Shown here: positions 3,976 to 35,682 of the stretch, one piece after another
Layout: each line of letters begins with the position of its first letter
How positions within the stretch are numbered: position 1 is the stretch's first letter
DNA from: Propionivibrio sp.
Lineage (GTDB): Bacteria; Pseudomonadota; Gammaproteobacteria; Burkholderiales; Rhodocyclaceae
NCBI GenBank assembly: GCA_041441355.1
Contig: JASDTF010000016.1
Location: 56,899 to 120,898 of the forward strand
Direction: 5' to 3'
DNA: 64,000 bases
Made by a program: the position numbers and the translations under genes
The notes under the pieces: generated by a model
Database searches by the model: none
Seen by the model: only the letters and a program-made list of their open reading frames with translations
What the model was told of the DNA's origin: nothing

Positions 3976-6900
3976 ATGACAACGTTGGAGGGGGACCGGA
4001 CCGTACGCGATCGCGCGTGGGTCATTCTCTTTTGCGTCGGCGTGGCGGGACTGATCCTGACCTTCTGGCTGGCGCGGTTCACGGCGCAGGCCGCGAACGA
4101 ACGACTGGAACAGCGTTTCGAAATCGCTGCGCGCGAACGCGCGGCGAGCATCGTCGAAGAGTTCCGGATTCCGATCGAGCAGTTGTTCTCGGTCCGTCGC
4201 CTGTTCGACAGTGTCGGCGGGGTCGAGCGCGAGGTGTTCGAGAACTTTTCCGAGCCCATCATGCGTCGCTACGGCGTGCGCGGCATTCGCTGGGCGCCGT
4301 ACATCCAGGCCGACGAGCGGGACGATTTCGAGCGCAATGGCAAGCGCCTCTGGGGGCACGACTTCTCTATTCTGGATCACGACGCAGAAGGGGTGTTCTT
4401 CCGGGCCGGGACGCGTGCGCAATATTTCCCTGTGCTCTACGCCTTGCCGCGGGCCGAAACGCGCAAGAGCATCGGCCTTGACCTGTACGCACACCACGAG
4501 CGTGGCGAGGTGCTGATGCAGGCCATCGAACAGGGGCAGGCGGTGGCCAGCGAAGTCGGGCAGTCGATCGGCGACGGTCTGCATTTCGACGAGATTGTGG
4601 CCATCGCCCTGCCGGTGTATCGCGCCGGGCAGCGTCCCGAGCAGCGCGAAGCGCGTCTGCGCGAGGTGCGCGGAGTCTTGGTCGGGCTGCTCGACATCGG
4701 TGCCCTGTTTGATTCGGCCAACGCCAAAGGCGCCAATCACGGCCTGCGCACCGTGCTCTTCGACCACGCCAGTCCGACGATTCCGATCCGCTCCTGGCAG
4801 GCTGAAGGGAGTGCCGCCGCAGAGTTGCCCTCGGCGGGCGTGCTGACGCACACCCAAAGCTTCGAACTCGCCAATCGCCTGTGGATGGTGCGCATCGTGG
4901 CCGAACCCGCCTGGATTCAGGCCAATAGCACGCGCAGCATGGAGGTCGTGGTTCTGAGCGGCTTTTGCCTGACGGCGTTGATGCTGGTGGGGCTCAACTG
5001 GCTGTTGCGCCGCAGCCGTCGGGTGACGACTCTGGAGACCGAGCTTGAACTCGGCCAAGCGCGCCAGCAGGCGGCGGAAGACTGGGCCAAGAAACTGTCG
5101 CTGGCCGTCGAGCAGAATCCGGCCAGCATCATCATCACCGACATCGACGGCAAGATCGAATTCGCCAACGACACCTTCCTGGCGACCACCGGGTACGCGC
5201 TCGACGAAGTGCTCGGCAAGACGCCGCTGCTGGTGCAGTCGGACGACACGCCGCGCGAGGCCTACGCCGAGCTGTGGCGCGAAATCTCTGCCGGCCGGAT
5301 CTGGCGCGGCGACTTGCAGAACCGGCGCAAGGACGGCGGCCAGTATTGGGAGCGGGTGCTGGTTGCACCGATCAAGGCACCCGACGGCAGCATCGCCAGC
5401 TACATTTGGATCAACGAGGACATCACCGAGCTGCGCGCCCTGTTCGACCAGTTGCGCGACAGCGACAGCCGCTTCCGCGGGGTGTTGGCGACCATGGTCG
5501 AGGGGGTTGCGGTGCTCTCGCCGAAGGGGCACTTCATCTACAGCAACCCCGCCGCCGAGAACGCTTTCGGCTGCCCGGACGGCGGCCTGATCGGGCGACG
5601 CCCCGAAGAATTGCCGGTCGAGCGCCTGCGCGCCGACGGCTCGCTCTGCCCGCCGGGTGAATTCCCCTTGCTGGTGACGCTGCGCGAACAGCGCGAACTG
5701 CGTGACATCACCCAGGGCATCCGCGCCCGCGACGGCAGCGTGCGCTGGCTGCGTGTCAATACCTGCGTGCTGCGCAGCAGCGGCGAGGGCAGTCACCACG
5801 GCGTGGTGCTGACCTTCACCGACGTGACCGAGCGCCAGCACGCTGAAGAACAGTTGCGCCTGGCCTTCGAGGTCATCAACCACACCAGCGAAGGCGTCAT
5901 GGTCAGCGACGCCCAGCACCGCATCCTGTCGATCAACCCGGCACTCGAACGAATGATCGGCCTGCGCAACGCCCAGATCATCGGTCGTCCGTCGGGCGCT
6001 TTCGTGCGCGCCCTTGACGACGCCTCCTTCGCTGCGGTGAACGATGCGCTGGTCAGCGGTCGCCCCTGGCAGGGCGAAGTGCGGTTGAAGAAGAAGACCG
6101 GACGCTCCTTGCACAGCTGGGCGGCGATCGCCGTGGTGCGCGATAACGAGAACCGGATCAAGCACCACATCTCGGTGTTCTCGGACATGACCGAGCGCAA
6201 GGAAGCGCAGGAGCGCATCGAGTTCCTGGCCCACCACGACCCGCTCACCGGCCTGCCCAACCGCCTGCTGCTGCGCGACCGTGTGGCGCAGGCGCTGGCG
6301 CAGGCACTGCGCATGCAAAACCGCGTGGCGTTGATGTTCCTCGACCTCGACCGCTTCAAGACGATCAACGATTCGCTTGGCCACCCGGTCGGCGACGCGC
6401 TGCTCAAGGAAGTCGTCGAGCGCTTGCGGACCTGCGTCCGCGACACCGACACCATCTGCCGCCAGGGTGGCGACGAATTCATCATCCTGCTCAACGACGT
6501 GCGCGACAGCGAAGCCGTCTCGCGCATCGCTGAAAAGATCCACCTGCGCATGACCGAGCCGGTGCTGGTCGGCAAGCATCAGCTCTCGACCTCGTTCTCG
6601 ATCGGCATCGCGCTCGGACCGGATGACGCCAGCGACTTCGACACCCTGTTGCAGAAGGCCGACACGGCGATGTACCACGCCAAGGAGGCGGGGCGGAACA
6701 GCCATCGTTTCTTTACCGAGCAGATGAACCGCCAGGTCGTCGAGCATCTGACGCTGGAGAACAAGCTGCGGCGGGCGCTCGACAACCGCGAGTTCGTCCT
6801 CTACTACCAGCCGCAGATCGACCTCGCCGAAGGGCGCATCGTCGGTGTCGAGGCCCTGATCCGCTGGAACAGCCCCGAAGACGGCCTGGTTTCGCCCGGG

Positions 6901-7539
6901 CGCTTCATTCCTGTTGCCGAGGCTTCGGGCCTGATCGCCCCGATCGGTGCCTGGGTGCTGCGCGAGGCCTGTCGTCAGGCGCGCGCCTGGCAGGATGCCG
7001 GCCTGCCGCCCTTCGTCGTGGCGGTGAACCTTTCGGCGATGCAGTTCAAGCGTCCCGACCTCATCAACACGGTGATCAACGCCCTGGTTCTCGCCGATCT
7101 CGACTCGCAGTGGCTCGAACTCGAACTGACCGAATCGATCCTGATCCAGGATGCGGAGTCGACGGTCGATTCGGTGCGTCGCCTGAAGGCGCTCGGGGTC
7201 AAACTGTCGGTCGACGACTTCGGCACCGGCTACTCAAGCCTTGCCTACCTCAAACGTTTCGCCGTCGACAAGCTCAAGATCGACCAGTCCTTCGTGCGCG
7301 ACCTCGGGCACGATCCGGAGGATTCGGCCATCGTTCGCGCCATCGTCCAGATGGCGCACAGCATGAAACTGACGACGATCGCCGAGGGCGTCGAGACGCA
7401 GGAACTGGCCGACCTGCTGCGCCTCTTCCATTGCGACGAGGCGCAAGGGTTCTGGCTGGCCAAGCCGCTGCCGGCCGACGAACTCGAAGCCTTCGTACGG
7501 GCGCGCATGAAGGTGCCCGGCGACGGCGTTTCGATCTGA
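3976..7539 (+). CDS. Membrane CHASE-PAS(x3)-GGDEF-EAL c-di-GMP signalling protein
   Basis: Two TM segments flanking a CHASE-like periplasmic domain; PAS repeats; HDPLTGLPNR, GGDEF, EAL, DDFGTGYSSL. Confidence 0.92.
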   Translation: MTTLEGDRTVRDRAWVILFCVGVAGLILTFWLARFTAQAANERLEQRFEIAARERAASIVEEFRIPIEQLFSVRRLFDSVGGVEREVFENFSEPIMRRYGVRGIRWAPYIQADERDDFERNGKRLWGHDFSILDHDAEGVFFRAGTRAQYFPVLYALPRAETRKSIGLDLYAHHERGEVLMQAIEQGQAVASEVGQSIGDGLHFDEIVAIALPVYRAGQRPEQREARLREVRGVLVGLLDIGALFDSANAKGANHGLRTVLFDHASPTIPIRSWQAEGSAAAELPSAGVLTHTQSFELANRLWMVRIVAEPAWIQANSTRSMEVVVLSGFCLTALMLVGLNWLLRRSRRVTTLETELELGQARQQAAEDWAKKLSLAVEQNPASIIITDIDGKIEFANDTFLATTGYALDEVLGKTPLLVQSDDTPREAYAELWREISAGRIWRGDLQNRRKDGGQYWERVLVAPIKAPDGSIASYIWINEDITELRALFDQLRDSDSRFRGVLATMVEGVAVLSPKGHFIYSNPAAENAFGCPDGGLIGRRPEELPVERLRADGSLCPPGEFPLLVTLREQRELRDITQGIRARDGSVRWLRVNTCVLRSSGEGSHHGVVLTFTDVTERQHAEEQLRLAFEVINHTSEGVMVSDAQHRILSINPALERMIGLRNAQIIGRPSGAFVRALDDASFAAVNDALVSGRPWQGEVRLKKKTGRSLHSWAAIAVVRDNENRIKHHISVFSDMTERKEAQERIEFLAHHDPLTGLPNRLLLRDRVAQALAQALRMQNRVALMFLDLDRFKTINDSLGHPVGDALLKEVVERLRTCVRDTDTICRQGGDEFIILLNDVRDSEAVSRIAEKIHLRMTEPVLVGKHQLSTSFSIGIALGPDDASDFDTLLQKADTAMYHAKEAGRNSHRFFTEQMNRQVVEHLTLENKLRRALDNREFVLYYQPQIDLAEGRIVGVEALIRWNSPEDGLVSPGRFIPVAEASGLIAPIGAWVLREACRQARAWQDAGLPPFVVAVNLSAMQFKRPDLINTVINALVLADLDSQWLELELTESILIQDAESTVDSVRRLKALGVKLSVDDFGTGYSSLAYLKRFAVDKLKIDQSFVRDLGHDPEDSAIVRAIVQMAHSMKLTTIAEGVETQELADLLRLFHCDEAQGFWLAKPLPADELEAFVRARMKVPGDGVSI

Positions 7540-7714
7540 TCCCGTCGAGGGCGCGCGCGGGGAAACCTGACTGCGCCACAAAGCTCACGACGCGAAGCAA
7601 AATCGGCGAACCCGGGTCGGAGACGTCCATCCGGGGCCATTCGTTACTTCAATGGCGTCCGTTTATTCAGCGCGCGTTACGTGCTGGGCCTTGTCCTCTG
7701 CCGTGCGTGAGCTT

Positions 7715-8323
7715 CTAAGGGCGGAAAACGCCAGCTTCAGTGACCACCGCGTCGAGCGCCACGTCGTGCGCGGCGGGGACGATGCTCTCGACCCGCGCCA
7801 GTTCGAAGCCGATGCCGATCGTCAGCGGGCGCGGCGTGAGCGCGGCGAGGGTGCGGTCGAAGAAACCGCCGCCATAACCCAGGCGGAAGCCGGCGGCGTC
7901 GAAGGCGTTGACCGGGATGAGCAGGGCCTCGGGGCGCACGAACTCGCCTTCGGGCGGGTAGGGAATGCCGTAGCGATCCTCGATCAGCGGCGTGCGGTCG
8001 TCCCAGGCGCGGAAGGCGAGCGGCGTTGCCGGTGCGACGACCACCGGCAGCAGGGCGGCGAAACCCGGCCGGCCCGTGGCGCGCCACTGGGCGAGCAGGG
8101 GGCGCAGGTCGGGCTCGTTCTGGATCGGCCAGCAAAAACCGACGCGTAACCCGGCCAGTTGCGGGAAGGCCGTCGCGAGGTGCTCCTGGATGCGCGCCGA
8201 CCATGCGGCGATCTGTGCCTCCGGCTGCGCGCGGCGCAGGGCGATGAGCCGTTCGCGCAAGGCCCGACGCGTCTCCCGCGCGGGCGAATCAGGGGGCAAT
8301 GCGGGCGGCGCTTGGGCGTCCAT
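7715..8323 (-). CDS. 5-formyltetrahydrofolate cyclo-ligase
   Basis: FCWPIQNEPDL, LIPVNAFDAAGFRLGYGGGFFDRTL, HDVALDAVVTE; start chosen at ATG 8323. Confidence 0.88.
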   Translation of the reverse strand: MDAQAPPALPPDSPARETRRALRERLIALRRAQPEAQIAAWSARIQEHLATAFPQLAGLRVGFCWPIQNEPDLRPLLAQWRATGRPGFAALLPVVVAPATPLAFRAWDDRTPLIEDRYGIPYPPEGEFVRPEALLIPVNAFDAAGFRLGYGGGFFDRTLAALTPRPLTIGIGFELARVESIVPAAHDVALDAVVTEAGVFRP

Positions 8324-8366
8324 GTGGTATGCTGCAAGACAGTATTGGCCTGCCTCCCAGCTTATC

Positions 8367-10316
8367 ATGAAGTCTTTTCTGCGCGCCCGCGTCGCGGCGC
8401 TGTGCCTTGCCATTCCCATGTTCGCCGCCGCGCAGGGGAACGGCACTCCCGATGACCGTTTCCTGGCGGCACGCGATGCCGCGCGCAGCGGCGACCGAGC
8501 CCGGCTCGAACGCCTGGCCGGCGAGTTGCAAGGTCATCCGCTCGAAGCCTACGTCGAGTACTGGCGCCTGCAGCCGGACCTCGCCACCGTCGATCCCAAC
8601 GTCGTCCGCGCTTTCCTGCAGCGTTACGAGCGCACCTACTTGGCGGACAAGCTGCGTAACGACTGGATCAAACAGCTCGGCAAGACGCAGCAGTGGGCCG
8701 AGATCAACGCCGAATATCCACGTCTCGTCCAACCCGAGCCGGAAGTGAACTGCTACGCGCTACAGGCTCGCCGGGCGAACGGCGACGCGAGCGCGCTCGA
8801 CGAGGCGATGCCGCTTTGGCTGACGTTGATCGAGCCGCCCGAAGGCTGCTATCCGGTGCTCGAAGCGCTGATCGTCGCCAAGCGGGTGCTGGCCGACGAC
8901 GTCTGGGCGCGCATCCGCCGCCAGATCGAAGCCAACCGCCCAGCGGCAGCGCGCTTTTCCATGAACTACCTGCCGCCGAGCCAGACGCCCGACGCCAAGA
9001 CGGCGCAGGCGGCGACCGAGTCGTCACTGGCCTGGCTCGCCAAGCTGCCGGCCAACTTCGCGCAGAGTCGCATGCAGCGTGAGCTGGCGGCGATCGCCGT
9101 GGCGCGCGTGGCGCGCAACGACCCGCGCATGGCGGCCGAACAACTCGCCCGTCTCGAAGGCAAGCTGCACGCCGACGCCCGGGCCTGGGCCTGGAGCATC
9201 GTCGGCTGGCAGGCTGCGCAACGTCACCAGCCCGAAGCACTGGATGCCTACCGTCAGGCCGGTGAGGCGCCGCTTTCCGACGAAGTCAGCCAGTGGAAGG
9301 TGCGGGCCGCCTTGCGGGCGCAGGACTGGGGGATGGTGCGCAATGCCATCGAACGCATGCCGCAGGCCTTGTCCAGTCAGCCGACCTGGATCTACTGGCT
9401 GGGCCGCGCGTACCGTGCCGAAGGGCGTGGCGACGAGGCCAACGCCTTGTTCGCGCGCATTGCCGGACAACCCAATTTCTACGGCAACCTGGCCGACGAA
9501 GAACTCGGGCGCGGCATCGTCGTTCCGCAGCGCGCGCCGCAACCGACGCAGGGCGAAGTCGCGCAGATGGCCGCCCGGCCGGAGATCGTCCGTTCGCTTA
9601 CCTTGCTGCGTCTGGGGCTGCGGGTCGAAGGCGTGCGCGAGTGGAACTGGGCGATGCGCGGCCTGAACGACCGCGAGCTGCTGGCCGCCTCGGTGGTCGC
9701 CGAGCGTGCCGGCAACTTCGATCGGGCGATCGCCGCCGCCGACCGGACCAAGGAAGAACACGACTACTCGCTGCGTTACCTGACGCCGTACAGCGAGGAA
9801 GTGCGTCCGGCGGCGCGCCGCCAGTCGCTCGACGACGCCTGGGTCTACGGCCTGATGCGCCAGGAGAGCCGTTTCGTCACCAACGCCAAGTCGAGCGCGG
9901 GGGCCTCCGGGCTGATGCAGCTGATGCCGGCGACGGCCAAATGGGTGGCCAACAAGATCGGTTTGCGCGACTACCACCACGGTCGGGTAAACGACACCGA
10001 GACCAACCTGCTGCTCGGCACCAGCTACATGCGCATGGTGATGGAGAGTCTGGACAACCACCCGGTGCTTGCTTCGGCAGCCTACAACGCCGGCCCTGGA
10101 CGGGCGCGCCGCTGGCGCGCCGAACGGCCGCTCGAAGGCGCGATCTACGCCGAAACGATTCCATTCACCGAAACCCGCGATTACGTGAAGAAGGTGATGA
10201 GCAACGCGGTGTATTACTCGGCGTTGTTCGAAGGGCAGCCGCAGTCGATCAAGACCCGCCTGGGCACGGTCGCGCCGCGCGTGAACGGCGACGCCAAGGC
10301 CGAGGAATTGCCCTAG
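8367..10316 (+). CDS. slt: Soluble lytic murein transglycosylase (Slt70-like)
   Basis: Signal peptide; helical repeats; catalytic RQES, GASGLMQLMP, AAYNAGPGR, ETRDYVKKV. Confidence 0.93.
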   Translation: MKSFLRARVAALCLAIPMFAAAQGNGTPDDRFLAARDAARSGDRARLERLAGELQGHPLEAYVEYWRLQPDLATVDPNVVRAFLQRYERTYLADKLRNDWIKQLGKTQQWAEINAEYPRLVQPEPEVNCYALQARRANGDASALDEAMPLWLTLIEPPEGCYPVLEALIVAKRVLADDVWARIRRQIEANRPAAARFSMNYLPPSQTPDAKTAQAATESSLAWLAKLPANFAQSRMQRELAAIAVARVARNDPRMAAEQLARLEGKLHADARAWAWSIVGWQAAQRHQPEALDAYRQAGEAPLSDEVSQWKVRAALRAQDWGMVRNAIERMPQALSSQPTWIYWLGRAYRAEGRGDEANALFARIAGQPNFYGNLADEELGRGIVVPQRAPQPTQGEVAQMAARPEIVRSLTLLRLGLRVEGVREWNWAMRGLNDRELLAASVVAERAGNFDRAIAAADRTKEEHDYSLRYLTPYSEEVRPAARRQSLDDAWVYGLMRQESRFVTNAKSSAGASGLMQLMPATAKWVANKIGLRDYHHGRVNDTETNLLLGTSYMRMVMESLDNHPVLASAAYNAGPGRARRWRAERPLEGAIYAETIPFTETRDYVKKVMSNAVYYSALFEGQPQSIKTRLGTVAPRVNGDAKAEELP

Positions 10317-28932: not shown

Positions 28933-29748
28933 TTACGGGGCGGGCAGGGCGCCGAGCTCGCGCAAGGCGGCGCGGACGATGGCTTCGCGTTTGGGCGCAT
29001 CGGCGATGCCGCCGGGCATGTCCAGGTTGAGCGCGAAGAACACCGGTCCTTCGGGACGCTCGACCCAGCCGACCCACCAGCCGACCGATTCACCGTTGCG
29101 GTTGAACCAGCCGGTCTTGGCCCGCAGGATGAAATCGCGGCCTGCCTCGACGACCATCAAATCCTTGACCAGGCGTTGGTGCGCGAGCTCGAACGGCAGG
29201 CGGTTGCGGTACAGGCGCTCGAGAAAGTCGATTTGTTCGTGCGCCGAAACGCGCAGGCTGCCGTCGAGCCAGAAGTCGTCGACGCGCGCACCGATCGTGC
29301 GGTTGCCGTAGTCGAGGTGGGCGAGGGCGGCGCGTTCGGCGGTCTCGCCGATCTTGCGGGCGAGGTCCTGATAGACCCAGACGACCGAATGGCGCATCGC
29401 CGAACGCAAGTCCTGGTCGCGGTTCCAGGCCGGGGCGCCGTGCCGGCGGCCGTCCCAGATGATGCGCGAAAACTCGTCGGCGACGGCGTGCTGTTCGAGC
29501 GCGATGAGGGTGTGCGGAAGCTTGAAGGTCGAGGCCGGCGCGTAGCGCGTCGCCGCGCGTTCGGGGGCGTAGACCTGGCGCGGCGCGTCGGGGCTGCGCT
29601 GATCGAGGATGAGCAGCGTGCCTTGCGCCGACTCGCGGGCAAAGTGCTGGGACCAGTCCGGGCGGACGATTTCGGTCGGAGCGGCCAGACCGAGCAGCGG
29701 CGCGGCGGCGATAAACAGCGCCAGAACGGCTTGGCGGGTAGGGGGCAT
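28933..29748 (-). CDS. blaOXA: Class D beta-lactamase (OXA-2-like)
   Basis: Signal peptide; STFK, SVV, YGN, FWL, KTG motifs in canonical order; HQRLVKDLMVVEAG resembles OXA-2 as I recall it. Confidence 0.92.
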   Translation of the reverse strand: MPPTRQAVLALFIAAAPLLGLAAPTEIVRPDWSQHFARESAQGTLLILDQRSPDAPRQVYAPERAATRYAPASTFKLPHTLIALEQHAVADEFSRIIWDGRRHGAPAWNRDQDLRSAMRHSVVWVYQDLARKIGETAERAALAHLDYGNRTIGARVDDFWLDGSLRVSAHEQIDFLERLYRNRLPFELAHQRLVKDLMVVEAGRDFILRAKTGWFNRNGESVGWWVGWVERPEGPVFFALNLDMPGGIADAPKREAIVRAALRELGALPAP

Positions 29749-29814
29749 AACGGGTGCAGCAGTGACAAAGGCGGAATTATCGCCTGCCGAGGCCCTTAAC
29801 CCAAGCCGAAGCGT

Positions 29815-29842
29815 AAAAAAAGGACACCCCGCGGGGTGTCCT
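29815..29842 (-). terminator. Intrinsic terminator of the DASS gene
   Basis: Perfect 22-bp palindrome aggacaccccgcggggtgtcct followed on the minus strand by a T-run. Confidence 0.8.
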
Positions 29843-29865
29843 GGTGACAAGCTGCACGCCGTTTT

Positions 29866-31341
29866 TTAAAGGTAACCGAGCACCTGCCACCAGACGGCGC
29901 CGACGACGACCATGATCAGGATGTTGATCACGCTCATCACGAAGCCGGCGAACCACCACTCGTTGAGCGTCGTGTAGCCCGAGCCGAAGATGATCGGCGC
30001 AGTGCCCGTCGCGTAGTGGGTCAGCGACATGTTGAGCGAGGACGAGAACGAGAGCAGCAGCCCGAGCAGCAGGGGCGGCGCGCCGAGCGCGACGCCGGCG
30101 GCGAAGAAGGCGGCGAACATCGCGGTGACGTGTGCCGTGGTGCTGGCGAAGAAGTAGTGGGCGTAGAAGTAGACCAGCACCAGCAGCGCCGTCGACGCCA
30201 TCCAGCCAAAGCCCATGCCGCTGATCCCGAGCTCCATGCTCTTCGAGAACCAGCCGATGACCCCGAGCTTGCCGAGGAAGGTTGCCATCATCACCAGCGC
30301 CGCGAACCACATCAGCGTGTCCCAGGCGCTCTTGGCCTTGAGGATGTCCTCCCATTCGAGCACGCCGGTCAGCAGCAGGATGGCCAGGCCGAGGATGGCG
30401 GTGGTCGTCGGATTGACGGCATAGGCCTTGCCGAGCAGCCACTCGGGCACGCCGGCCCACAGGCAGAGCATGCCCAGCAGCACGCCGATGGTGATCTTCT
30501 CGGTCAGCTTCATCGGCCCGAGCTTGCCGAGCTCGGCCTCGGCCATCTCGCGCGCGGCCGGCGTTTCCTTGATCTCGGGCGGGTAGAGGTAGTAGAGGAT
30601 GAGCGGCATGAGCAGCAGCATCACCGCGCAGGGCAGCAGCGCGGCGAGCGCCCACTGGCCCCAGGTGATCTGGATGTTCAGGTTGGTCGCCTTGGCGATC
30701 AGTTCGACGCACAGCGGGTTGGGCGCGGTGGCGGTGATGAACATCGTCGAGGTGATCGGGTTGGCCTGGTAGTTCACCAGCGCCAGATAACGCCCGATGC
30801 GGCCCTGGGTGCCTTTCTCCGGCGCGGAACCGAAGCTGTCGGCGACCGAGCGCATGATCGGGTGGATGATGCCGCCGCCGCGCGCGGTGTTGCTCGGCGT
30901 CACCGGGGCGATGACCAGCTCGGCGGCGACCAGGCCGTAGGCGACCCCCAGCGTGCGTTTACCGAAGAGCTTGATGAAGTAGTAGCCGATGCGGGTGCCG
31001 AGGCCGGTCTTGTTGAGCGAGAGCGAGACCAGGACGGCGATGACGATCAGCCAGATCAGGGAATTGGAAAAGCCGCTCAGCGCGTCATTGAGCGCGTTGG
31101 CCGATTTGCCCGGGCTGGTGACGCCGGTGATGGCGACCAGGGCGATGGCGACGACTGAGATCGAACCGATCGGCATCGCCTTGCCGATGATCGCGGCGAT
31201 GGTCCCGATGAACAGCGCCAGAAGTTGCCAGGCGTTGGGCTTGACGCCCTCGGGCACCGGGATGACGAACCAGATGAGCAGGGTCAGGCCGATCGCAATC
31301 GCGCTCGGCAGTGGTCTGGGCAGAACCAGATTGTGTTGCAT
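29866..31341 (-). CDS. DASS family anion transporter (CitT/TtdT/YbhI-like)
   Basis: AWQLLALF, TGLGTRI, PVTPSNTARGGGI, HYFFASTTAH, LTHYATGTAPI. Confidence 0.9.
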   Translation of the reverse strand: MQHNLVLPRPLPSAIAIGLTLLIWFVIPVPEGVKPNAWQLLALFIGTIAAIIGKAMPIGSISVVAIALVAITGVTSPGKSANALNDALSGFSNSLIWLIVIAVLVSLSLNKTGLGTRIGYYFIKLFGKRTLGVAYGLVAAELVIAPVTPSNTARGGGIIHPIMRSVADSFGSAPEKGTQGRIGRYLALVNYQANPITSTMFITATAPNPLCVELIAKATNLNIQITWGQWALAALLPCAVMLLLMPLILYYLYPPEIKETPAAREMAEAELGKLGPMKLTEKITIGVLLGMLCLWAGVPEWLLGKAYAVNPTTTAILGLAILLLTGVLEWEDILKAKSAWDTLMWFAALVMMATFLGKLGVIGWFSKSMELGISGMGFGWMASTALLVLVYFYAHYFFASTTAHVTAMFAAFFAAGVALGAPPLLLGLLLSFSSSLNMSLTHYATGTAPIIFGSGYTTLNEWWFAGFVMSVINILIMVVVGAVWWQVLGYL

Positions 31342-31679
31342 GAACTCCCTCCAAAAGCGTTGGTACTCCAAATGGAAAAACTGAGCGTGTCGTTCTTTTT
31401 TGGCGTGCAGCTTGAGGAACGTTTCGGCGCTGGTTCAGGCCGGTGCCGGTGTTAACCGGCTCGGCGCAACCCGGGGCGCGTGGGCGCTTATTTTTATGTC
31501 ATGACGAGCGAGAGTGTTGCCGAAAAGCCTCGGCCTGACAATCAATTTCCGGTGTGCGGAGCGCGCGTTCTCAGGCCCTGTTGCGCGGCCTCGACGGGCC
31601 GTCGTGGCGGGCTTTGCGGCGTTTTTCGAAAGGCGGTGAAAAAGCGTTCGTGCCGACATGACGGACGTTTTTTTGCCGC

Positions 31680-31708
31680 TTGAAAAAACAAATTTGCTGC
31701 GTTAAATT
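31680..31708 (+). promoter_or_regulatory. Candidate sigma70 promoter of the octaheme cytochrome operon
   Basis: TTGAAA-17-TAAATT followed by an AT-rich tract up to the RBS. Confidence 0.5.
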
Positions 31709-31768: not shown

Positions 31769-33394
31769 ATGAGGCAAGGCGCGTTTCGAGGGGTGAAAGG
31801 GTGGTTGGGGGCCGCGTTCATGGCGGCGTTGCTGTGCGGAGCGTGGAACGTTCTCGCGGCGGACGCGCCCAGGCCGGTCAAGCTGAACACCACGGCCGAC
31901 CATTCCAAGTTCAAGGAACTGCAGCGTGAATTCGCTTCCGGGCCGGAGGTGACGCAGGCCTGCCTCTCCTGCCACACCGAGGCGGCCGGGCAGATCCACC
32001 GCACCAAGCACTGGACCTGGGAGTACAAGAACCCGCAGACCGGGCAGGTGTTGGGCAAGAAGCACGTGCTCAACAATTACTGCATCTCGGTCGAGACCAA
32101 CCTCGGCGCCTGCGCCAGCTGCCACGTCGGCTACGGCTGGAAGGACAACAACTTCGACTTCGCGTCGGAGAAGAACGTCGATTGCCTGGTCTGCCACGAC
32201 ACGACCGGCATCTACAAGAAGCCGGCCGGTTTTGCCGGCAATCCGGTGCTCAAGGACGTCGAAGTACCACCCGGTTCAGGCAACGTGATCAAGGGCATCG
32301 ACATCGCCAAGGTGGTGCAGAAGGTCGGCAAGACCAGCCGCGACACCTGCGGCGCCTGCCACTTCTTCGGCGGCGGCGGCGACGGCGTCAAGCACGGCGA
32401 CCTCGACAGCTCGATGGCGGCGCCCGACCGCGAGCTCGACGTGCACATGGACGCCACCGGCCTTGACTTCACCTGCGCCACCTGTCACAAGACCGCGAGC
32501 CATGATGTGGCTGGCAGCCGCTACACGCCGACGGCAGTGGATACCGGCGGCGCGCACCTGCGCGGCAAGGCCGACAACAGCAATCCGGCCACCTGCGTTT
32601 CGTGCCACGGCCAGGCGCCGCACAAGCGGACGGCGCTGCTCAACACGCACACCGACAAGCTGGCTTGCCAGACCTGCCACATCCCGGCCTTTGCGCGCGG
32701 CGGGGTGCCGACCAAGATGAGTTGGGACTGGTCGACCGCCGGCGAGCGCGACGCGGAGGGCAAGCAGGTCACGCGTAAGGATGCCAAGGGGCATGTGATC
32801 TACGAATCGCGCAAGGGCAGCTTCACGGTTGCCGAGAACGTCAAGCCGGAATACCTCTGGTTCAACGGGCAGGTGAACTACACCCTGGCCGAGGACAAGA
32901 TCGCCGATCCGGAGAAGATCGTGCAGGTCAATTCGATCGGCGGCAGCCCCGGCGACGGCAAGTCGCAGGTCTGGCCGTTCAAGGTCTTCCGCGGCTCCCA
33001 GCCTTACGACAAGGAGCACCGGACGTTGGTCAAGCCGCACGTGGCCGGCAACGACGACACCGCCTACTGGAAGAACCTGGTGTGGGACAAGGCCGTGGCC
33101 ACCGGCATGGCCTCGGCGGGGCTGCCGTTCTCGGGCCAGGTCGGCTTCGTTACGACCGAGATGTTCTGGCCGGTGACGCACATGGTGGCGCCGAAGGAAA
33201 AGTCCGTACGCTGCACCGAATGCCACAGCCGCGACGGACGGCTGGAGGGCGTGCCGGGCCTTTACATTCCCGGGCGCGACCGCAATGCGCTGGTCGATAC
33301 CCTGGGTTGGGCGCTGGCCGGGCTGGCGTTGGTCGGCTCCTTGGGCCATGGGCTGCTGCGCATCGTCGCTCGTCGCCGCGAAACCAAGGAATGA
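31769..33394 (+). CDS. otr: Octaheme c-type cytochrome, tetrathionate reductase (Otr) family, with C-terminal TM anchor
   Basis: Eight CxxCH (CLSCH, CASCH, CLVCH, CGACH, CATCH, CVSCH, CQTCH, CTECH); GKKHVLNNYC motif; signal peptide; hydrophobic C-terminus. Confidence 0.88.
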   Translation: MRQGAFRGVKGWLGAAFMAALLCGAWNVLAADAPRPVKLNTTADHSKFKELQREFASGPEVTQACLSCHTEAAGQIHRTKHWTWEYKNPQTGQVLGKKHVLNNYCISVETNLGACASCHVGYGWKDNNFDFASEKNVDCLVCHDTTGIYKKPAGFAGNPVLKDVEVPPGSGNVIKGIDIAKVVQKVGKTSRDTCGACHFFGGGGDGVKHGDLDSSMAAPDRELDVHMDATGLDFTCATCHKTASHDVAGSRYTPTAVDTGGAHLRGKADNSNPATCVSCHGQAPHKRTALLNTHTDKLACQTCHIPAFARGGVPTKMSWDWSTAGERDAEGKQVTRKDAKGHVIYESRKGSFTVAENVKPEYLWFNGQVNYTLAEDKIADPEKIVQVNSIGGSPGDGKSQVWPFKVFRGSQPYDKEHRTLVKPHVAGNDDTAYWKNLVWDKAVATGMASAGLPFSGQVGFVTTEMFWPVTHMVAPKEKSVRCTECHSRDGRLEGVPGLYIPGRDRNALVDTLGWALAGLALVGSLGHGLLRIVARRRETKE

Positions 33395-33405: not shown

Positions 33406-33999
33406 ATGAGCGAGCGCATCTACATCTTCAAAGGCTTCGAGCGCTTCTGGCACTGGGCGCAGGCGGCGCTGATCATCACCCTGCTGCTCACCGGGTTCGA
33501 GATTCACGGCAGTTATAAGCTGTTCGGCTTCTACAAGGCGCTGGACACCCACACGACGGCGGCGTGGGCGCTGATCGGGCTGTGGGTCTTCGCCATTTTC
33601 TGGCACGTGACCACCGGCGAATGGCGGCACTACATCCCGACCACCGACAAACTGCTGGTCATCGCCCGCTATTACGCCTCCGGCATCTTCCGCGGCGAGC
33701 CGCACCCGTTCAAACCCAGCAGCCTGAACAAGCACAACCCGCTGCAGCGGCTGACCTACCTCGGCATCCTGGTGTGCGTGAGCCCGCTGTTGTGGATCAC
33801 CGGCTGGCTGCTCTACTTCTACGGCAGCTGGAAGGCCTGGGGGCTCGAAACGCTGTCGCTTGAAGCGGTGGCCGTGGCGCACACCGTAGGCGCCTTCCTG
33901 ATGCTGGCCTTCCTCATCTCGCACCTCTATCTTGTAACCACGGGGCGGACGCCGACGGCGCACCTGAAGGCCATGGTCACGGGCTGGGAGGAGCATTGA
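33406..33999 (+). CDS. Cytochrome b/b6 domain membrane subunit (PhsC/FdnI-like quinol-interacting)
   Basis: FERFWHWAQA, TM His residues, KHNPLQRLTY, AHTVGAF...SHLYL. Confidence 0.88.
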   Translation: MSERIYIFKGFERFWHWAQAALIITLLLTGFEIHGSYKLFGFYKALDTHTTAAWALIGLWVFAIFWHVTTGEWRHYIPTTDKLLVIARYYASGIFRGEPHPFKPSSLNKHNPLQRLTYLGILVCVSPLLWITGWLLYFYGSWKAWGLETLSLEAVAVAHTVGAFLMLAFLISHLYLVTTGRTPTAHLKAMVTGWEEH

Positions 34000-34063: not shown

Positions 34064-34456
34064 ATGGGGATCAAACAAGTGGTGGTCGGCGCGGTGGCGC
34101 TGGCTGCCCTCGGGGTCGCCGCCCAGGCTACCGCTTACGACGGCGACTGGAAGCGCGGTCGCATTTACTACCGCAGCGTGTGCACCTCGTGCCACGTCGC
34201 CTCGCCGGTCGGCGGAATCAACCCGAGTTCGAAGACCAAGGCTGAGTGGAACGCCTATCTGCAGGCCGACAAGCACGCCAAGGGCAAGGACGCGGTGAGC
34301 CACTACGTCAGCCAGGGCTATCGCAACAGCATCAAGGCGGCGAACAAGGCGGCCGAGAAATTCGCCGATGTGCCCGACAAGGAGCTGGCCGAGGACATCA
34401 AGGCCTTCCTGCTCAAGGGCGCCAAGGACGGCGACGCGCCGGCCAGCTGCAGCTGA
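34064..34456 (+). CDS. Periplasmic monoheme cytochrome c
   Basis: Signal peptide; single CTSCH; ends PASCS. Confidence 0.85.
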   Translation: MGIKQVVVGAVALAALGVAAQATAYDGDWKRGRIYYRSVCTSCHVASPVGGINPSSKTKAEWNAYLQADKHAKGKDAVSHYVSQGYRNSIKAANKAAEKFADVPDKELAEDIKAFLLKGAKDGDAPASCS

Positions 34457-34481: not shown

Positions 34482-35636
34482 ATGAGCCTCAGGCAATCCG
34501 CGGTGCTGGCGCTGCTTGCCGCCAGCCTTCTTTCCTTTGCGCCGGCCCCGGTGCAGGCCGCCGACCCGTCCGCCGCGACTGCGCTTCAGCCGCGCGAGGG
34601 GTGGTACAAGCAGCTCGTCGATTTCGATTTCATGCGCGCCAACGTTGACATCCCACCCAAGCCGGGGGTGCTGATCGTCGATTCGCGGCCGGCGGCGCGG
34701 CAGTACGATCCGGGCCACATTCCCGGGGCGATCAACATTCCCGATACCCAGTTCGACAAGCAGGTCGCCCGCCTTCCGGCCGACAAGAACTCGCTGCTCG
34801 TCTTCTACTGCGGCGGCGTCGATTGCCCGCTCAGCCACAACTCGGCGTTCAAGGCCGAGCAGCTCGGCTACACCAACATCAAGGTCTATCCGCAAGGGAT
34901 GCCCGACTGGGCGGCGCGCGGCGGCCAGGTGGCGGTGTCGGCGGCGTTCATCAAGAAGCTGATCGACGAGAAGGGCGCCTATGCCCTGATCGACGCGCGC
35001 CCGAAGCGGGTGGCCGAGAAAGGCATGATCCCGACCGCGATCAACATTTCCGACACCGAGTTCGACAAGCAGACCGACAAGCTGCCGACCGACAAGGCGA
35101 CGCCGCTGATCTACTACTGTGGTGGTTTGGAATGCGTGCTTTCCGACAAATCGGCGGCCAAGGCCAAGGCGCTCGGGTACAGCAACGTCCTGACCTACCC
35201 CGAGGGCTATCCGGAATGGGAAAAGCTGCACGGCGCAGCGCCGGCGGTGGTCGCATCTGCAGGCAGTGCGCCGGCACCCGCAGTGGCGAGCCCGAGCCTG
35301 ATCGCGGGCAAGGAAAAAGGGTCGGTGACCGTGGCCTCGTTCGAGCAGGTCTGGAAAACGGCGCCGGCGAACCTCGTCCTCGTCGACGTCCGCGACGCCA
35401 AGGAGTACGCCGCGGGGACGATCAAGGGCGCGCAAAATCTGCCGATCAATGACCTCGAAAAACAGGTCGGCACGCTGCCGACGAACAAGCCGGTGGTCTT
35501 CTTCTGCAGCACCGGCGCCCGCGCCGGCGAAGCCTACGACACCGTCAAGCTGCTGCGCGGCGAGGTTCAGGCTTACTTCCTCGATGCCGGCATCAAGTTT
35601 TCTGGCGACGGCGCTTACACGATGACGCAAAAGTAA
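34482..35636 (+). CDS. Secreted triple-domain rhodanese/sulfurtransferase
   Basis: Signal peptide; three repeats (VDSRP..GHIPGAINI; IDARP..GMIPTAINI; VDVRD..GTIKGAQNL) with loops YCGGVDC, YCGGLEC, FCSTGAR. Confidence 0.88.
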   Translation: MSLRQSAVLALLAASLLSFAPAPVQAADPSAATALQPREGWYKQLVDFDFMRANVDIPPKPGVLIVDSRPAARQYDPGHIPGAINIPDTQFDKQVARLPADKNSLLVFYCGGVDCPLSHNSAFKAEQLGYTNIKVYPQGMPDWAARGGQVAVSAAFIKKLIDEKGAYALIDARPKRVAEKGMIPTAINISDTEFDKQTDKLPTDKATPLIYYCGGLECVLSDKSAAKAKALGYSNVLTYPEGYPEWEKLHGAAPAVVASAGSAPAPAVASPSLIAGKEKGSVTVASFEQVWKTAPANLVLVDVRDAKEYAAGTIKGAQNLPINDLEKQVGTLPTNKPVVFFCSTGARAGEAYDTVKLLRGEVQAYFLDAGIKFSGDGAYTMTQK

Positions 35637-35653: not shown

Positions 35654-35682
35654 AAACGGTCGCGCGTGCGGCCGTTTTTTTT
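35654..35682 (+). terminator. Intrinsic terminator of the otr operon
   Basis: aaacggtcgc-gcgt-gcggccgttt followed by a T-run. Confidence 0.75.

Follow-up and report, generated by a model that had tools for sequence, protein, structure and literature searches.

The octaheme cytochrome Otr, the structure of which was reportedly solved in 2004, has to our knowledge no established physiological substrate or partners. SoxY, the carrier of thiosulfate oxidation, has a C-terminal GGCGG arm, and in SoxA the ligand Cys is the site of the sulfur adduct. In Shewanella oneidensis, the gene beside otr (SO_4144) is, as we take it, SO_4142. Its product is listed as a periplasmic monoheme cytochrome c of unknown role and is co-regulated with otr in the transcriptome (PMC5789149, PMC5955497); in TsdA, a His/Cys-ligated heme of class I type serves thiosulfate/tetrathionate chemistry (PMC6879331). 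In the literature searched, no paper addressed the heme ligation of SO_4142, and the conserved C-terminal Cys signature described here had not been reported.

The DNA analyzed (hereafter the window) is a stretch of 64,000 nucleotides from a Propionivibrio sp. genome. It carries a small monoheme cytochrome c gene as the third member of a tight four-gene unit (Otr, cytochrome b, cytochrome c, rhodanese), with the following elements:

31680..31708, plus strand: sigma-70-like promoter candidate from a consensus scan (9/12 matches; a consensus match only)
31769..33394, plus strand: Otr-family octaheme cytochrome c with a C-terminal membrane anchor (TIGR04315, 630 bits against a cut-off of 375; PF11783)
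33406..33999, plus strand: PhsC-like cytochrome b, the quinol-side partner, of the PhsC/Ni-hydrogenase b561 type (PF01292, 93.6 bits)
34064..34456, plus strand: monoheme cytochrome c gene, an intact 130-codon ORF with a 130-aa secreted product
34482..35636, plus strand: secreted triple-rhodanese protein (PF00581 in three stretches, 156.8 bits)
35654..35677, plus strand: intrinsic terminator-like hairpin at the operon end (10-bp stem, then a T-run)

The translation of the Otr gene (31769-33394) contains eight CxxCH motifs and a hydrophobic C-terminus, and the cytochrome b (33406-33999) also matches the thiosulfate reductase cytochrome b model NF011582, with 127 bits, under the cut-off. The third domain of the rhodanese (34482-35636) has the canonical CSTGARA active-site loop; an NCBIfam match of this protein to “TsoB” was discarded, as the name belongs to an unrelated selenoprotein nomenclature.

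Within the cytochrome gene, which is preceded by a GGAG-type ribosome-binding site, the features that matter below are these:

34064..34135, plus strand: Sec-type signal peptide, residues 1-24, from sequence reading
34181..34195, plus strand: heme c attachment motif CTSCH (C40, C43, H44), invariant in 99/99 homologues
34274..34276, plus strand: His71, candidate distal ligand or distal-pocket residue (97/99 in the 99-member alignment)
34421..34453, plus strand: C-terminal signature A120-K-D122-G-D124-A-P126-A-S-C129-S, conserved in the 99-member alignment
34448..34450, plus strand: TGC codon of Cys129, the penultimate residue, invariant in the family

Cleavage of the signal peptide is predicted either after AQA22, from the sequence, or after ATA24, from the family conservation of A22 (118/121 homologues) and A24 (120/121). 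CTSCH is the sole CxxCH of the 130-aa protein, its translation has no Met beyond Met1, and the only His outside the motif are His71 and His80; the C-terminus reads ...GAKDGDAPASCS (given also as ...LLKGAKDGDAPASCS), with Cys129 in the penultimate position. The mature product is a periplasmic, divergent class-I-type monoheme cytochrome c of ~106 residues.

A sequence search (E<=1e-3) found homologues in 1478 clusters at 90% identity, a profile search found 2023 clusters, and at the 50% identity level there are 107 representatives; where a source is named, it is a MAG of Burkholderiales, Rhodoferax, Propionivibrio, Rhodocyclaceae or Sulfurimicrobium. With >1400 homologues at E<=1e-3 and 2023 by profile, nearly all of them 128-135 aa long, the ORF at 34064-34456 is not a chance one. 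Conservation was read from a close set (n=121) and from a diverse set (n=99, thinned to <85% identity and reaching down to ~27% identity to the query). Among the 99 diverse members, G32, C40, C43, H44, P54, W62, D122 and C129 are invariant, and T58, H71, F115, A120, D124 and P126 nearly so; of these, we take G32, P54, W62 and F115 to be residues of the class I cytochrome fold. The tail stands out in the same alignment: D122 is kept in 99/99, P126 in 97/99, A120 in 96/99 and D124 in 90/99, a 15-residue spacing separates F115 and C129 in 98/99, and positions 125, 127, 128 and 130 vary freely. On this alignment, the A-x-D-x-D-x-P-x-x-C ending is the family's own signature and the C-terminal Cys its only family-specific invariant.

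These data bear directly on an earlier note on this DNA, made from the sequence alone. Its description of the mature protein (one CTSCH, no Met, two other His and a tail ending in Cys) is borne out by the translation, and the conservation of the C-terminal Cys, the check that it had proposed, proved complete: Cys129 is present in 121/121 close homologues and, down to ~27% identity, in 99/99 diverse ones. “Met-free” applies to the window protein and does not extend to the family, in which Met occurs at position 47 in 17/121 close homologues and likewise at position 59 in 17/121; no conserved Met or Lys column exists among the 99 diverse members. Similarly, the window protein does have two other His, of which only His71 is a family trait (121/121 close and 97/99 diverse members), His80 being variable (Q, K or H).

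Two members, P0226 and P0228 (the latter within the 99-member alignment, the former outside it), have no nearby His at 71 and carry a Cys near that position instead; both still keep Cys129. The Met-ligand loop of ordinary class I cytochromes is absent from the short forms of the family that are described below. A few members have 2-4 residues beyond the Cys (..CGK, ..CGG, ..CSQQ, ..CDPDP), so that a free C-terminal carboxylate next to it is not essential. A search for heme-free homologues that keep the tail gave 22 candidates, all of them faulty metagenome calls (truncated, frameshifted or chimeric) and no real variants; a search for members with selenocysteine (TGA) in place of the terminal Cys found none.

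An AF2 model of residues 26-130, made with 99 sequences, is all-helical and class-I-like (pLDDT 91.5, pTM 0.84), with helices at residues 29-44 and 105-118. Residues 116-125 reach a pLDDT of 92 and the last five (126-130, PASCS) only 56; in the model the acidic part of the C-terminal extension (AKDGDA) is docked and the terminal stub is left unplaced. The “flexible tail” of the earlier description is accordingly apt for the last ~5 residues (pLDDT 56) and not for A120-P126, which is conserved and predicted to be docked. Sequence and profile searches of the PDB returned generic heme-motif matches only (profile E ~2e-4 for c6 and mitochondrial cytochrome c) and no sequence relative; an ESM Atlas search returned only the cytochrome's own kind, and the Pfam scores stay under the gathering thresholds (PF13442, 22.5 bits against 27; PF00034, 16.2 bits against 21.3). 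Foldseek, run with both models, gave no match at E<=0.001 and a TM of only 0.3-0.4 to c4, c6, PsbV and PsbV2. With VIA-align, class I cytochromes overall gave Z 4-6, the best of them (Z 6.0 and 5.6) being class-I domains from the diheme DHC cytochromes, and there was a weak resemblance to SoxXA (Z 4.4) and TsdA (Z 3.4).

The window protein thus has in common with class I cytochromes c (c6, c553, c4 domains and the DHC N-terminal domain) the N- and C-terminal helices, the CxxCH, the Pro and the Trp, and differs from them in lacking the Met ligand and in having an added C-terminal Cys extension. Unlike TsdA and SoxA, to which no sequence relationship was detected, it is a monoheme protein with a single CxxCH, and its Cys lies beyond the C-terminal helix and not in the distal loop. 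Like SoxY, it is small and secreted and has a conserved Cys at its very C-terminus, but the fold is unrelated (no PF13501 match at E<=1; an all-helical AF2 model), a heme is present, and the tail is acidic, Pro-anchored and short where that of SoxY is Gly-rich. Membership in TsdA, SoxA or SoxY was rejected, as sequence homology to TsdA and SoxA, a diheme arrangement like that of TsdA and the Ig-like PF13501 fold of SoxY were looked for and found absent.

The closest described relative is to be sought beside otr. The short forms of the family in genomes G340 and G313 share with the window protein the CxxCH, the P, the W, His71 and a DSDxPxxC-G ending, and they match it with profile E-values of 2.7e-17 and 3.5e-16 and BLASTP E-values of 3.7e-9 and 4.5e-12, respectively. 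The G340 Otr matches the S. oneidensis OTR (PDB 1SP3) with 685 bits and is roughly 70% identical to it by eye. The short form is almost certainly the SO_4142 type, an orthology that is drawn from synteny and not from the SO_4142 sequence. In comparison with this type, the window protein is longer (130 aa against ~108 aa, with an extra ~25-residue helical insert) and its gene lies between those of cytochrome b and rhodanese, with no porin. The 130-aa cytochrome belongs to an uncharacterized family that goes with Otr-type octaheme cytochromes and is probably that of SO_4142.

Both proteins were searched for in 401 genomes sampled evenly across the phylum. Otr was present in 45/401 genomes and the cytochrome family in only 5/401, and in 5/5 of the sampled genomes that carry the family it adjoins Otr; the adjacency is seen in the window, in G319, G349, G340 and G313, and also in the metagenomic loci L111-L113; several metagenomic representatives of the family lie on contigs that are too short to show their neighbors. 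Members of the long form (128-137 aa) stand in the order Otr-(cytochrome b)-cytochrome c-(YeeE/Sulf_transp permease)-rhodanese, as found in the window, G349, G319, L111/L112 and L113; the short contig of L068 shows the cytochrome c-YeeE-like portion alone. The permease, of the YeeE/YedE type, lies between cytochrome and rhodanese in the relatives and is absent from the window operon. The Sulf_transp permease genes are:

L032, 6974-8215, minus strand: Sulf_transp permease
L111, 6417-7652: Sulf_transp permease
L113, 6479-7729: Sulf_transp permease
L068, 634-1176: Sulf_transp permease

The short form (~105 aa) is followed by a DUF3373 outer-membrane barrel and then, where the sequence extends, by Otr; the full order is seen in G340 and G313, and for P0205 and P0223 the contig stops at the porin or shortly beyond it. 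The cytochrome-barrel loci are:

L034, 6402-8114: short-form cytochrome and DUF3373 barrel
L035, 6070-7796: short-form cytochrome and DUF3373 barrel
L037, 442-1566: short-form cytochrome and DUF3373 barrel
L069, 745-2448: short-form cytochrome and DUF3373 barrel

The L035 barrel gene is broken into two ORFs, possibly by a frameshift. Otr and cytochrome b are paired in 26/30 sampled Otr loci (the Shewanella-type otr loci have no cytochrome b); this pair is the common core, and the monoheme cytochrome is an accessory to it.

We screened the co-directional neighbors within +-6 kb around 40 further Otr loci (a crude ORF screen) and found three unrelated types of secreted protein that also end in Cys: SoxY, an ankyrin-repeat protein and a DUF302 protein. 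The SoxY (..GPGGCG) is followed by SoxZ and comes directly after a 732-aa ORF in which Otr and cytochrome b are fused, two rhodanese genes preceding; it occupies, in G198, the slot that the monoheme cytochrome fills in the window. Here, the Sox-type carrier pair is wired to Otr and not to SoxAX/B/CD. The secreted ankyrin-repeat protein, with an ..EAGGRC-x tail, is encoded immediately upstream of Otr-cytochrome b in Magnetococcales-like genomes, at six loci from two genera (L096, L102, L106, L108, L109, L110), and has five relatives in Magnetococcales MAGs (P0329-P0333); the ..AGGRC-x tail is missing from the generic ankyrin proteins compared. At three of these loci (L106, L108, L110), a conserved protein of 119-129 aa without a signal peptide is encoded between the ankyrin gene and Otr. 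The DUF302 protein is membrane-anchored, with a poly-Gly tail and a terminal Cys (..GGGGGGC; ..TGGGAGGGGGGC), and lies upstream of a second Otr-cytochrome b pair in G319, a genome that also carries the cytochrome-containing Otr operon. The two single loci are:

L084 (G198:C50:10362-23675), 4434-8769, minus strand: Otr::cytochrome b, SoxY and SoxZ
L073 (G319:C1:1047496-1060872), 7622-8188, minus strand: DUF302 protein upstream of the second Otr-cytochrome b pair

For comparison, the background frequency of a Cys among the last two residues is 2.7% of long ORFs in the window's genome. About 32/45 surveyed Otr loci show no Cys-terminated partner in the crude ORF screen, and such a partner is therefore not obligatory for Otr. 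The statistics come from a small sample of related, non-independent genomes (the ankyrin clade amounts to only two genera, the SoxY and DUF302 cases to one locus each) and are suggestive only; the most telling point is the occurrence of a bona fide SoxYZ carrier beside Otr.

We propose that Cys129 is a reactive, sulfur-handling thiol that serves the Otr module, a reading that leaves the heme ligation open and to which we give about an even chance. Cys129 would be an exposed, reactive thiol kept near the protein body; exposure of this end is suggested because the flanking positions 127, 128 and 130 vary and the last five residues have a pLDDT of 56. It would take up a persulfide from the neighboring rhodanese, or a thiosulfonate formed with tetrathionate or thiosulfate, and the loaded Cys129 would then present the sulfur species to the quinol-linked Otr/cytochrome b reductase (in relatives, also to the YeeE-type permease), while the cytochrome's own heme would supply or relay electrons. 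The cytochrome would thereby be a heme-bearing functional analog of the SoxY carrier. In one redox state, Cys129 may in addition coordinate the heme iron, His71 being the other candidate for the sixth ligand.

Besides the invariance of Cys129 (set against the lack of any conserved Met), the fixed tail motif and the recurring gene order, two links from the neighborhoods speak for this proposal: the SoxY/SoxZ pair in the same operon slot favors a sulfur-carrying Cys, and the presence of heme-free, Cys-ended partners in equivalent slots suggests that the Cys has a role independent of ligating a heme of its own protein. The earlier note had likewise read the cytochrome as a candidate for sulfur chemistry, and its neighbors agree with this (Otr, a PhsC-like cytochrome b, a rhodanese and, in relatives, YeeE-type permeases); the protein is no relative of TsdA, SoxA or SoxY. 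Its image of a sulfane-carrying arm gains from the SoxY/SoxZ pair in the same slot elsewhere and loses from the tail itself, which is a short stub of fixed length and not a long arm: it has 3 residues past Pro126, unlike the Gly-rich arm of SoxY. Further, the fixed distance of Cys129 from the fold, together with the near-invariant His71, would also fit a structural heme ligand.

A bolder version of the same proposal is that Otr enzymes act in vivo not on free tetrathionate or nitrite, but on sulfur that small periplasmic partners carry as adducts on their C-terminal Cys, so that the cytochrome would be the carrier of both the substrate (on Cys129) and the electron (on the heme) and would form a new class of “redox-active sulfur carrier”, convergent with SoxY. 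This we offer tentatively, with more doubt than confidence.

The strongest alternative makes Cys129 the sixth iron ligand of a low-potential His44/Cys129 heme. This heme would be either a catalytic centre like those of TsdA and SoxA, with the ligand Cys as the acceptor of the sulfur adduct, or a ligand-switch redox centre in which His71 takes over from the Cys on reduction. It has the sequence on its side in several ways, as Cys129 is, besides His44, the only invariant ligand-capable residue (99/99), is retained by the two members without His71, and keeps a fixed 15-residue spacing from F115 that suits a structural contact, while the canonical Met-loop offers no conserved ligand and is missing from the short forms. 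Given the fixed spacing, the swaps from His to Cys at position 71 and the fact that no other ligand is invariant, His/Cys ligation, or a redox-linked His71/Cys129 switch, stays in play. Sulfur chemistry by His/Cys hemes has a precedent in TsdA (PMC6879331). Set against this, the last five residues have no confident AF2 placement (pLDDT 56), the residues next to the Cys are polar and differ among members, His71 persists in 97/99 and presumably lies about where class-I distal-side residues sit, and the heme-free, Cys-ended proteins that share the operon slot indicate that the Cys has a role for which it needs no heme of its own. We regard His44/Cys129 ligation as possible, if on balance doubtful. 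The thiol and ligand readings are not mutually exclusive, since in TsdA and SoxA the ligand Cys is the very site of the sulfur adduct.

Should the heme instead be bis-His ligated (His44/His71), the cytochrome would be a shuttle of electrons from the membrane to Otr, with the Cys engaged in an intermolecular disulfide (to a dimer mate or a partner) or otherwise structural. His71 is near-invariant, VIA-align places the fold closest to class-I domains from diheme DHC cytochromes (Z 6.0, 5.6), and such a shuttle would be useful in the Shewanella-type loci that lack cytochrome b; however, it would be unneeded in the window, whose Otr is anchored in the membrane and comes with a cytochrome b, and most Otr-cytochrome b pairs do without this protein. 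An invariant, unpaired Cys in the oxidizing periplasm and a conserved seven-position motif would be unusual for a plain shuttle, and the pattern of Cys-terminated partners would be left unexplained. We therefore consider this unlikely. A porin-cytochrome conduit with DUF3373, which would serve extracellular electron transfer and have nothing to do with sulfur, is suggested by the barrel that follows the short-form members (and precedes Otr where the sequence extends), but is highly improbable, as one heme cannot span a membrane and, in the window operon and its relatives, the place of a porin is taken by rhodanese and YeeE-type genes.

Should the Cys also serve as a ligand of the heme, no smaller His/Cys c-type cytochrome would be known, and the protein would offer a simple model of TsdA/SoxA chemistry. 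A conserved partner with a single, likely reactive Cys offers an experimental handle on the role of Otr in vivo. The family is abundant in environmental genomes of the Burkholderiales/Rhodocyclales type (>2000 sequence clusters), so that its role would bear on thiosulfate/tetrathionate turnover in sediments, aquifers and wastewater.

Neighbors other than Otr also occur. A metagenomic contig (P0145; ENA ERZ21818090/93; L001) encodes a 137-aa family member, with 35% identity and the tail ..DSDTPATCN, followed by a molybdopterin oxidoreductase gene with a Molybdop_Fe4S4 domain, and the Cys-tail cytochrome may thus also partner molybdoenzymes; one further family member adjoins the gene of a DUF4136 protein instead of Otr.

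Several other genes were observed near otr. The otr of G319 has a DsrC-like gene upstream (L032, 12295-12666). Another recurrent accessory, encoded upstream of Otr in four loci, is a CxxCH-containing lipoprotein that is Tll0287-like (PF11845):

L089, 7504-8097: PF11845 lipoprotein
L093, 4141-4752: PF11845 lipoprotein
L094, 2469-3098: PF11845 lipoprotein
L095, 7511-8083: PF11845 lipoprotein

In the window, no sigma-54 promoter was found upstream of otr, the pattern occurring at chance level across the window; a gene for a sigma-54 (FisR-like) activator lies downstream of the four-gene operon. Divergent from the operon is a divalent-anion:Na+ symporter gene (Na_sulph_symp, 29866-31371, minus strand), which is adjoined by a class D beta-lactamase-like gene of the transpeptidase fold (28933-29850, minus strand).
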